Source: Clostridia bacterium
GTDB taxonomy: Bacteria > Bacillota > Clostridia > Oscillospirales > SIG627
Length of the DNA stretch: 64,000 nt
Reading direction: 5' to 3'
Assembly (NCBI GenBank): GCA_017517325.1
Contig: JAFWZW010000018.1
Coordinates: 8,061-72,060, forward strand
Position numbers and translations under genes: made by a program. The notes below the pieces were generated by a model. It was not told where the DNA came from, ran no database searches, and worked only from the letters and a program-made list of their open reading frames with translations. How positions within the stretch are numbered: position 1 is the stretch's first letter; every line of letters begins with the position of its first letter. Of this stretch, positions 40,555 to 46,452 are shown piece by piece.

Positions 40555-43500
40555 ATGTCGGATAATCAGGAGATCCTCCGTGGTGAAGGTGTTTCCATTG
40601 AATTAGCGGCACTTGACGTTATCAATTACACCCTGCACCAAAATCACGTGGAAAGCGTAAAGAGCGTTACCATTAAAAACGACACGGAAAAAGATCTGTC
40701 GGATCTGGTACTGTCCATCACCTCGGAACCGGAGTTTTCTAAGCCGTTTCAATTGCACGTAGATTTCGTGCCCGCAAAAAAGAGCTACGAGATCAAAAAG
40801 ATCAATCTGGAACTGAACGTGGATTTTCTCGCAGGCATCACCGAAAAAGTAGAAGGGAGCCTCACCGCTTCCCTTTTTGTCAAGAATGAAGTGATCGCCA
40901 CAAAAAAAATATCCGTCAGTGCCCTTGCCTTTGACCAATGGCACGGCTACGGCACCCACCCTGAGTTGCTTGCCTCTTTCGTGACGCCCAACCATCCCGC
41001 CATCGTGCCCATTCTGGCACGCGCCGCAGAACTGCTCAGCGAATGGACCGGCGACCCCTCCTTCGACGGATATCAATACAAAGACCCCGACCGCGTAAAC
41101 AAGCAAGCGGCAGCCATTTTCTGCGCCCTGAAGGAACAGAAATTGATCTATTGCGTTCCTCCCGCAAGCTTTGAACAGACCGGTCAGCGGATCCGCCTTT
41201 GCGATGCGGTGCTTCAACAAAAAATGGGCACCTGTCTGGATCTGACCCTTCTGTACGTTTCGTGCCTGGAGGCCATCGGTCTCAACCCCCTTTTGATCCT
41301 TTCATCCGGCCACATCTTTTCCGGCTTCTGGCTGGAAGAACTGACCTTCCCCGAATCGGTGCTGGACGATCCCTCTCTCATCACCAAGCGCATGGCAGAA
41401 GGCGTCAATCAGATCAACGTAGTAGAAACCACACAAGTGGTCAACGGACACAACGCCACCTTCGATATGGCGGTGGATGCGGCCGTAAAGCACTTTGTGG
41501 GAACCGACCCCATTGAATGCATCATTGACGTTCGCCGCGCAAGGCTGAGCAGCATTACCCCCATTCCTCAGCGTGTGCACGACGATAACGGCTGGCACAT
41601 TGAAATGGACCTTGCCGACGAGGGACAGAGCATCATAGCGCCCAAGAAGATGGACGAAGCGCTGGATACCGATGGACTTGACCCCAACCAGGGCATTCCC
41701 AAGATGGTACAGTGGGAGCGCAAACTTCTGGATCTGAGCCTTCGTAACACCCTGATCAACCTTCGCTTTTCCAGAACCATCGTTCCCTTCCTTGCTCCAA
41801 CGCTGGACGAGCTGGAAAACGCCCTTGCCGACGGTGAAGAATTTACCGTTCTTCCCCGCCCTGCCGACTGGACTTCGGAACAAGAATTTGGCTTTGAGAC
41901 CATGCACGTTTTAGGAAGCGAAACGGGGATCGTTTCTTCGGAATACGCCAATCACAGACTGCGCACCGCGCTGACGGAAAACGAACTGCAAAAAACGGTC
42001 AAGGATCTGTACCGAAAAGCCAAGACCGCCATGGAAGAAAACGGCGCCAACACCCTCTTTTTGGCTTTGGGCGTTTTACGCTGGTATGAATCCCCCCGTT
42101 CTAAAAAGCCCCGCTACGCACCTGTGATCCTCCTACCCGTGGAGCTGGTGCGCAAATCAGCAAACAAGGGCTATACCCTGCGCCTTCGCGACGACGAGCC
42201 TCAGATCAACATCACCATTCTGGAAAAGATCAAGCAGGATTTCGGCATTGAGGTGAAGGGGCTTGACCCCCTGCCCGCCGATGAATCGGGTATCGATATG
42301 CGAATGGTATTTACCGTTTTGAGAAAAGCAGTAATGAGCCAGGATCGCTGGGACGTTTTGGAATCCGCTTATTTGGGAATCTTCTCTTTCTCGCAGTTTG
42401 TGATGTGGAGCGATCTGCGCCACCGCAGCGAGGATATTATGAAGAACAAGATCGTTAAGAGCCTCATTGACGGAAAACTCTCCTGGGATGCAAAAGCGAT
42501 GGAAGTAGGAGAACGGGTGAGCGAGGATTCCGCCCTGCTTCCCCTGCCCGCCGATGCCTCCCAGCTATTTGCCATTCAGGCGGCCTGCAACGGGGAAAGC
42601 TTCGTACTGCACGGACCACCCGGAACGGGAAAATCTCAAACCATTACCTCACTCATAGCAAATGCACTGGCAAAAGGCTCATCCGTTTTATTTGTAGCGG
42701 AGAAAAAGGCCGCTCTTGAGGTGGTAAAGAACCGACTTGACAGCATTGGTCTCAGCCCCTTCTGTTTAGAGCTTCACTCCAACAAATCCAAAAAGAGTTA
42801 CGTTCTGGATCAGCTTCGCCAGGCCGTCGAGGTGGTGCGCCGCAAATCCCCGCTGGATTACGCCAGAAAGGCAGAGCAGATCAAAGATCTGCGTGAAAGC
42901 CTTGATTTTTACGCAAAACAGCTTCACACCCCCCTTTCCTGCGGTTTCACGGTGTACGAGTTGATCAACGAATACGAAGAATATGCCGACGCCAAGGATC
43001 TGGTGGTCTTCTCGCGGGATTTCGCAAAGGAGCAGACCCGTATTTCTCTTGAGGATCATGTGGTGCTGCTGGAGCAGCTCACCGCTTTGGGCAGATCCTT
43101 CGGACATCCCAAATATAACCCCCTTTCTCACATCGGTATTACCCGCTACCACCAACAGCTGCGCGTGGATATTCCCGCTGCCGTCGGCGCATACAAAAAG
43201 GTGCTGGACGACTTCGTTCCCGCAGTCCTTTCCTTTGCCGCCCTTGCAGGCATCGGAGATATTCAAAACGAATATGAATTGACCCGCGCCATGGAACTGG
43301 CGGAAAGCGTAGCCATTTGGAAGAGTCTGCCCAGATCCTGGGCAAAAACGGAGTACAACAATCTGTACTTTACTTCCGTTAAGAAAATGGCAGCTCACTT
43401 TTTTGCTGCCGCTTCCATCCGAAAGAATCTGCTGAAAAATTGGAGCGAGGACTTTCTTTCTTTGGATAGCGGCGAGCTGGTGGCAAAATACAACGCCGTT

Positions 43501-46452: not shown

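Follow-up and report, generated by a model that had tools for sequence, protein, structure and literature searches.

The DNA analysed here, called the window throughout, is a stretch of 64,000 nucleotides from contig JAFWZW010000018.1 of a Clostridia bacterium (Oscillospirales), and all positions count from its first letter. We found that one of its genes, which encodes a protein of 1965 residues, is, on its match to a curated model, a member of the catalogued ProA family of anti-phage proteins. An earlier note on this DNA, made from the sequence alone, had placed it with the Hhe system. The protein joins in one chain an N-terminal beta-sandwich, a transglutaminase-like peptidase domain, a DUF4011 domain, an Upf1-like helicase of superfamily 1B (SF1B), a Vsr-like restriction endonuclease (REase) fold and a DUF3320-like C-terminal region. 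We consider it probable that it works as a single-protein, partner-less enzyme of nucleic-acid surveillance or restriction that is independent of modification.

Assignment to the ProA family

We compared the window protein with the curated models of the two families. The NCBIfam equivalog NF058533, 'anti-phage protein ProA', matched it at 2005.5 bits against a cutoff of 1500, with residues 24-1921 aligned to the complete profile (1-1903 of 1903). The Hhe equivalog NF042953 matched in two partial stretches and reached 799 bits, where its cutoff is 2000. As a positive control we used the PGAP-annotated hhe gene of a Klebsiella IncF plasmid, whose product reached 2730 bits with the Hhe model and 1129 bits with the ProA model, which is below 1500 and covered only profile positions 428-1717. 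Homologues from Bacteroides finegoldii (2197 bits) and Paenibacillus agaridevorans (2275 bits) also passed the ProA model. Since the window protein passes the ProA cutoff and fails that of Hhe, and the control behaves reciprocally, we assign the gene to ProA, a sister family of Hhe. No tested feature of the window protein differs from the NF058533 family, whose profile includes the N-terminal module, DUF4011, the SF1B helicase, the MTES_1575 REase and the C-terminal region; this copy stands in a housekeeping chromosomal context.

In PADLOC, the top match was PDC-S37 (E = 0, 1164 bits, residues 383-1945 on profile positions 9-1540 of 1550), a score that is read without a curated cutoff. PDC-S37 is an unvalidated candidate in PADLOC-DB v2 whose model is without the N-terminal 380 residues, and a literature search found no paper mentioning it. 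Hhe came second (567 bits, 2.6e-170), at half the score of PDC-S37. The earlier call of a candidate defence gene thus agrees with both the NCBIfam and the PADLOC models.

The Hhe system with which the earlier note had matched the gene, a helicase with a Vsr-like nuclease reportedly described by Gao et al. in 2020, does have much in common with the window protein. Hhe is likewise a single-gene system with DUF4011, an Upf1-like helicase carrying a large insert, a Vsr-like REase and a C-terminal tail, and BLASTP aligned the DUF4011-helicase-Vsr core of the Klebsiella protein with window residues 447-852 and 1116-1841 at 32-34% identity (~1150 aligned residues). However, Hhe begins directly with DUF4011, the shared RKLLDL motif of that domain lying at residue 29 in Hhe and at residue 389 in the window protein, and so it is without the ~380-residue beta-sandwich and transglutaminase-like module. 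Its nuclease reads ECDG..YH where the window protein has LLDG..YQ, and the Klebsiella gene adjoins DUF262 genes and IS66 on a conjugative plasmid. Membership of Hhe was rejected at the level of the curated models, on the score, the start of DUF4011 and the missing Glu and His of the nuclease.

The architecture had been described by comparative genomics as that of the MTES_1575-type giant proteins (Anantharaman et al. 2013, Biol Direct 8:15; PMC3710099). These share with the window protein the peptidase, the superfamily 1 helicase, the Vsr-family REase and two domains of the winged helix-turn-helix (wHTH) type, and carry an extra N-terminal HEPN (Abi2/Swt1, DUF4145) RNase domain. The window protein is a HEPN-less form: Pfam gave no match to PF13643 (HEPN), and the beta-sandwich already starts at residue 13. 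HEPN/DUF4145 annotation was present in homologues of ~2120-2170 residues. The 2013 paper noted that modification genes are lacking and predicted a modification-independent restriction system. It proposed that invading DNA is recognised directly through C-terminal wHTH domains overlapping DUF3320, and that the transglutaminase-like domain adds another line of defence by cleaving proteins (PMC3710099). With an architecture in print since 2013, a core listed among the PADLOC candidates and a curated NCBI anti-phage model for the full length, we regard the family as already known. A search for an E. coli exemplar of ProA that started from a Raoultella plasmid homologue gave no match at the DNA level.

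Domains and conserved residues

The earlier note had read a stand-alone gene with the order of domains given above. The open reading frame (ORF), Pfam and AlphaFold2 bore this out, DUF3320 being recovered only below its cutoff. The features are collected in Table 1.

Table 1. Features of the ProA-family gene and its surroundings (window coordinates; aa, residues of the window protein)
Feature	Position	Strand	Basis or remark
ProA-family coding sequence	40555..46452	+	ATG start, 1965 aa, stop codon included; mechanical ORF list and stop-free translation
N-terminal beta-sandwich (Ig/C2-like), aa 13-123	40591..40923	+	AlphaFold2 predicted local distance difference test score (pLDDT) above 94; Foldseek matches
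Transglutaminase-like (papain-fold) peptidase domain, aa ~130-350, triad C227/H253/E291	40942..41604	+	Conservation, Pfam matches of homologues, fold
DUF4011, aa 390-558	41722..42228	+	Pfam PF13195, 9.3e-50, profile 1-157/158
SF1B helicase RecA-like domain 1, N-terminal part (Walker A, motif Ia), aa 667-760	42553..42834	+	Pfam AAA_11, AAA_30, AAA_19; PDB sequence matches IGHMBP2, Upf1
Insert of ~480 aa between helicase motifs Ia and II, aa 761-1240	42835..44274	+	Poorly conserved
Helicase motifs II-VI, aa 1241-1553	44275..45213	+	Pfam AAA_12; PDB sequence matches Sen1, DNA2
Vsr-like REase (Pfam REase_MTES_1575), aa 1604-1699	45364..45651	+	86.1 bits against cutoff 38.2, 1.7e-24
Low-complexity acidic, Pro/Ala-rich linker, aa 1700-1784	45652..45906	+	Conservation 0.12-0.13; 20-36% of homologues gapped
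DUF3320-like region at the C-terminus with two predicted winged-helix domains, aa 1785-1965	45907..46449	+	Sub-cutoff Pfam match
Shine-Dalgarno sequence GAGAGGAAG	40542..40550	+	Read from the sequence; GAGG core ends 7 nt before ATG
Promoter-like site TTGGAA-17-TATAAT, extended -10 TG	40452..40480	+	Sigma-70-like; 75 nt upstream of ATG
Intrinsic terminator hairpin with A-run and T-run flanks	46455..46496	.	Overlaps 3' end of convergent amidase gene
Nine-gene divergent operon	29670-40314	-	PP2C phosphatase, Ser/Thr kinase, FtsW/RodA, penicillin-binding protein (PBP) transpeptidase and five without an above-threshold family match

Pfam gave no match in the first 385 residues of the window protein, its transglutaminase-like models included, and a PDB sequence search with the N-terminal profile returned nothing meaningful. 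We modelled the region with AlphaFold2 from 60 homologues (pLDDT 90, predicted template modelling score 0.86) and obtained a beta-sandwich at residues 13-123 followed by an alpha/beta domain at ~130-350. Foldseek matched the beta-sandwich to beta-sandwich domains that include those of transglutaminase 2 (TG2) and factor XIII (E ~2e-4, 116 columns). Since generic beta-sandwich matches swamped the fold search with the whole 385-residue model, residues 125-352 were modelled again alone (pLDDT 91). Most of the top 30 matches of this separate model had the transglutaminase fold, though they were weak (E at least 7e-3, template modelling score 0.24-0.35); the top matches were PNGase, the putative cysteine proteases 3kd4 and 3isr, LapG, Rad4/XPC, PeiW/PeiP and TG2. 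When Pfam was run on the 60 homologues of the N-terminal region, PF04473, 'Transglutaminase-like domain', was found in 26 of them (best 1.2e-5) and PF01841 in 19 (best 1.6e-3).

The triad was examined in 207 diverse homologue representatives (~31-55% identity). C227 was conserved in 203 and H253 in 206, while position 291 held Glu in 197 and Asp in six. The residues stand in the contexts GTC227LD, GH253IF and VVE291TT, and the order G-x-C...H...(D/E) fits the transglutaminase-like superfamily. Judged by this alignment the peptidase triad is complete and its third residue is E291, in the VVETT string where the earlier note had thought it might lie; the Cys227/His253 module of that note stands, its triad being ~97% conserved. 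We accept the domain as transglutaminase-like on three independent, individually modest lines, the structure alone being insufficient.

A full HMMER scan with residues 1-385 was run against 1.84 billion cluster representatives (50%-identity clusters). It gave 4052 matches, 1079 of them below 1e-30, and the best 150 of the 4052 were mostly 1900-2300 residues long. This shows that the N-terminal module is a defining, strongly conserved and family-wide part of the large ProA family and not a sporadic one. The earlier view of it as an add-on was not upheld, since the ProA profile covers the module and more than 1000 clusters match it at E < 1e-30.

The helicase proved to be Upf1-like, as had been read from its motifs, with IGHMBP2, Sen1, Upf1 and DNA2 as the best PDB sequence matches. 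Its two halves were matched by Pfam AAA_11 (residues 667-734) and AAA_12 (residues 1364-1553, 7e-18), as in an Upf1-like SF1B helicase. K693 of the Walker A motif GPPGTGKS was invariant in 120 homologues, and residues G687-T698 were invariant among 25 aligned homologues. Nearly all residues of motifs II-VI were invariant in these 25 as well (4 of 31 varied), the motifs being DEASQ (1308-1312), VGDPKQMPP (1331-1339), QGDERD (1501-1506) and RRLNVAVSRAR (1536-1546). Mean identity to homologues was 0.22-0.49 in the insert at residues 761-1240 compared with 0.8-0.9 in the motif regions, and Pfam found in the insert only a sub-cutoff chance match to PF06757 (E 0.034). The helicase core motifs are what ProA has in common with Upf1-like SF1B helicases (Upf1, IGHMBP2, Sen1, DNA2) and with MkoA and MkoC of Mokosh, both of them secondary PADLOC matches of the window protein; the insert, DUF4011, the peptidase and the REase are not shared. 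At the C-terminus, DUF3320 scored 19.2 bits at residues 1790-1827, below its cutoff of 25, and PF11784 is precomputed for most homologues; DUF3320 has been described as two wHTH domains (PMC3710099).

A Vsr-type block had been noted after the helicase, and Pfam identified it as REase_MTES_1575, with the strings YRVDVGVVD, LLDG and WNVMRVW at residues 1626-1680. Among 209 full-length members, D1629 and D1648 were each conserved in 204, D1660 and R1661 in 208 and W1674 in all 209; RDRE is conserved at residues 1659-1662. The motif is G-I-L-L-D-G-P-G-Y-Q in the window protein and G-I-E-C-D-G-A-A-Y-H in Hhe, so that the Glu/His pair of Klebsiella Hhe (E1727, H1734) is absent and L1646 and Q1653 are found instead. 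Position 1646 (45490-45492) is Leu, Met or Ile in 187 of the 209 members and Glu in 11, and position 1653 (45511-45513) is variable. The two positions co-vary, with both Glu and His in nine members, a hydrophobic residue at 1646 and no His at 1653 in 194, and very few intermediates, suggesting a concerted active-site change in one large clade. The nearest solved relatives by profile were RAP domains (6.6e-4), which are also without the Glu and His, followed by the DUF559 structure 3hrl (1.5e-3), which carries E-x-D-G-x-x-H.

Hhe is reported to protect against lambda, T3, T7 and PhiV-1 and to lose this protection when its nuclease site is mutated, as with E1731A in E. coli Hhe (bioRxiv 10.1101/2022.06.16.496414). 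E1731 would be equivalent to the Glu of GIECDG, E1727 in Klebsiella Hhe. Because the Hhe-type Glu/His pair is absent from the window protein, the catalytic competence of its Vsr-like domain is uncertain. Judged by its conserved residues the REase fold is clearly under selection, and its cleavage activity is putative. The earlier note had asked whether the catalytic residues are conserved: C227, H253, D1629 and D1648 are, and the Hhe-type Glu and His are absent from most members. The peptidase triad was intact in both nuclease types, with and without the Glu and His, and in 86 of 89 representatives with both domains aligned; ~9 of the 89 additionally were without one nuclease Asp.

The locus, its distribution and its neighbours

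The gene was confirmed in full as one intact single-gene ORF. A 100%-identical protein is recorded from 8-9 independent metagenome contigs, under no other name than 'DUF4011 domain-containing protein [Clostridia bacterium]'. A promoter and a terminator of its own had been proposed, and a promoter-like site and a hairpin were found on its two sides (Table 1). The promoter call is a consensus match only, with seven such sites in the region compared with 3.6 expected. A divergent promoter match (11/12) at 40393-40366 on the minus strand faces the upstream operon, and both matches fall within a 240-bp spacer that parts the gene from this minus-strand operon, in agreement with the divergence from a kinase/GTPase operon described earlier. 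The hairpin folds at -22.2 kcal/mol (z = -6.4), a value that none of 200 shuffled sequences matched. It has a T-run behind it and is probably bidirectional; owing to one internal mismatch in the stem it escaped a simple terminator scan.

Two further observations concern the coding sequence. Metagenome contigs of the same species, from several samples, break within the gene near 44395-44422 (residues ~1280-1289), in a region with the highly conserved motif CPCMLMSPIS, and fragments of 1289 N-terminal and 685 C-terminal residues recur (loci L089-L092, L097 and L099-L101). These breaks likely reflect branching of the assembly graph caused by homologous genes of co-occurring species. A minus-strand ORF of 124 residues (44091-44465) lies antisense within the gene, and by tblastn 38 of the 80 loci seemed to have it 'conserved'. 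It sits on the helicase-motif region where conservation is highest and was rejected as a gene, being best explained as a shadow of the sense frame.

We scanned for loci of the family with one genome per species and found at least 584, of which 80 were fetched for counts of neighbouring genes. The loci found in the scan are scattered over at least seven phyla (Bacillota, Bacteroidota, Verrucomicrobiota, Actinomycetota, Synergistota, Planctomycetota and Riflebacteria). When the 80 loci were searched for a conserved partner gene ('ProB'), no flanking protein family occurred in more than eight of them. On this count, and with a promoter-like site and a terminator of its own, ProA is judged to work alone, without an obligate partner. 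Homologues covering at least 80% of the query were present in 22 plasmid records from Acinetobacter, Rhizobium, Gluconobacter and other genera, and a copy on a Raoultella IncF plasmid (69% of the query) adjoins an IS110 transposase. In other lineages the gene looks mobile.

Two homologues were found in unusual records. In Bacteroides finegoldii (NZ_OY725931.1, 6021-15009) the homologue is flanked by rpsA, which encodes ribosomal protein S1, and by a reverse transcriptase of the retron type. This record of 45.8 kb bears a plasmid label but is probably a chromosomal contig, because rpsA and glutamine synthetase are present. MT836269.1, an unannotated 'Bacteriophage sp.' contig of 11,434 bp from human faeces, holds a homologue at 6162-11312 (42% identity, 86% of the query), which is either phage-borne or part of a mis-binned bacterial fragment.

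The operon upstream begins, in order of transcription, with genes for a 370-residue unknown protein, the PP2C phosphatase (38395-39195), the Ser/Thr kinase (36584-38368) and a 306-residue unknown protein. These are followed by a 400-residue protein with a P-loop-like motif, a probable membrane protein of 514 residues, an unknown protein of 180 residues, FtsW/RodA (30992-32335) and the PBP (29670-30995). Its composition resembles that of the actinobacterial fha-pstP-rodA-pbpA-pkn cluster.

Three other parts of the window are recorded here. A 504-residue ORF (25777-27291, minus strand) with a TPR-like stretch matched TIR_2 at 25.3 bits, below the cutoff of 28, and had no PADLOC match; it may represent a TIR protein not yet catalogued, or the match may be due to chance. 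A tRNA-Pro(CGG) gene (27899-27975, plus strand) lies ~600 bp from it. ORFs of 900 residues (4655-7357, minus strand) and 508 residues (16975-18501, plus strand) had no Pfam or PADLOC match, and the latter may be spurious, as an ORF of 340 residues overlaps it on the other strand.

Proposed mode of action and alternative explanations

We infer an anti-phage phenotype for the window gene, a substrate and the following order of events. Expression would be constitutive and driven by the gene's own promoter. Foreign or aberrant nucleic acid would be engaged by the DUF4011 and wHTH modules, with no modification mark needed, and ATP-driven 5'-3' translocation by the helicase would license or gate the effector domains. 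The REase-fold domain may then cleave or grip the nucleic acid, and the transglutaminase-like peptidase may cleave or modify a protein target, which might come from the phage or the host or be ProA itself. Phage replication would thereby be blocked or the infection aborted. Going by the alignments, the catalytic modules look to be under purifying selection, as seen at K693 and the helicase motifs, at C227, H253 and E291 (~97-99%) and at D1629 and D1648. The anti-phage reading also draws on the NCBIfam and PADLOC matches, the two-way separation from Hhe, the lack of a recurring neighbour, the scatter over phyla, the plasmid copies, the prediction of 2013 and the protection reported for Hhe.

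Several findings weigh against an anti-phage role of this copy. The primary experimental paper on ProA was not found in a literature search, so the anti-phage function rests on the name of the curated model. The REase is without the Glu and His that Hhe and DUF559 proteins carry. The window is an ordinary housekeeping chromosome and not a defence island, with genes for IF-2, RNase J, a P-type ATPase, an NDP-sugar transferase, transporters, fumarate hydratase, an M20 peptidase and an AraC regulator; within ~15 kb on each side of the gene, PADLOC gave only generic kinase-domain matches and a marginal PDC-S02 (E ~1e-3). In each of the five closest relatives (53-63% identity) the gene has stayed next to the same operon (PP2C/kinase/RodA/PBP). 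In these genomes the operon proteins are 27-46% identical, and the ranks of identity are roughly congruent with those of ProA. No empty-site allele was found in 19-20 same-species contigs, which all hold the gene between the same flanks (the search used exact flank proteins and covered near-identical strains only). Among the 130 nearest neighbours in the 80 loci, most were housekeeping proteins and only two were defence-type reverse transcriptases.

One alternative is that the gene serves conserved housekeeping nucleic-acid processing, such as RNA or R-loop surveillance or DNA repair (compare Upf1, Sen1 and IGHMBP2), and not dedicated immunity in this lineage. The shared position beside the cell-envelope/kinase operon in five related genomes and the ranks of identity fit vertical descent, ProA evolves more slowly than the genes beside it, and no defence or mobile genes are found nearby. 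A DUF4011 gene is core in every P. aeruginosa isolate (PMC10250203), and the RAP domains that are closest to the nuclease in the PDB are RNA-associated. However, curated models of anti-phage families match the window protein, and the family is spread patchily over many phyla with contexts that vary in 75 of 80 loci. Copies lie on conjugative plasmids beside insertion sequence elements, many homologues carry a HEPN (DUF4145) fusion, and the fusion of a peptidase with a nuclease is typical of conflict systems. On balance we think a housekeeping function unlikely.

The synteny itself is limited in extent. Among the five closest genomes the gene is divergent from the operon in three, as in the window, and co-directional just after the PBP gene in two, which is consistent with one inversion. 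As the adjacency is confined to these five of 80 genomes and occurs in two orientations, we regard it as synteny of the lineage and not as a functional link between ProA and the operon or as a system. The earlier note had held that syntenic core homologues across the family would speak against defence; such synteny was found in the five closest relatives and not across the 80 loci.

A second explanation accepts ProA as a defence protein and makes the Vsr-like domain a non-catalytic or altered nucleic-acid-binding module, the peptidase being the true effector or activator. It would account for the 194 of 209 members without Glu and His at positions 1646 and 1653, as compared with nine that have both, and for a triad that stays intact in both nuclease types and in the ~9 of 89 representatives that are minus a nuclease Asp. 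A published parallel is given by the protease-HamA fusions of Hachiman, which lost their nuclease motif (D-GEXK) and act by proteolytic activation (PMC12799240). On the other hand, D1629, D1648, D1660 and R1661 are near-invariant, as expected of a working metal site, no separate pro-effector gene is conserved beside ProA, and E. coli Vsr is likewise not known to have a Glu at the equivalent position. We hold this explanation to be improbable. A related proposal would make ProA an immune effector that is gated by the helicase and cleaves or modifies proteins, its REase fold being repurposed as nucleic-acid sensor or clamp; in Acutalibacteraceae it would be retained vertically as a 'core' immune or surveillance gene and not as a mobile island gene. 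This seems to us equally doubtful. That the gene is a genuine Hhe system with merely acquired N-terminal add-ons is very improbable in view of the reciprocal control, the twofold higher PDC-S37 score, the family-wide N-terminal module and the different nuclease motif, for all the alignment of the core and the PADLOC match at 2.6e-170.

We therefore retain ProA as a probable single-protein surveillance or restriction enzyme and correct its family label from Hhe to ProA. As most members lack the Hhe-type Glu and His, one may ask which of the domains acts as the effector. The gene behaves in gut Oscillospirales as a stably inherited chromosomal gene beside a cell-wall/kinase operon and not as a passenger of a defence island. 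Of further value are the difference documented between its nuclease site and that of Hhe and a vertically retained context unlike a defence island, and they leave the overall picture of a catalogued single-gene defence family unchanged.

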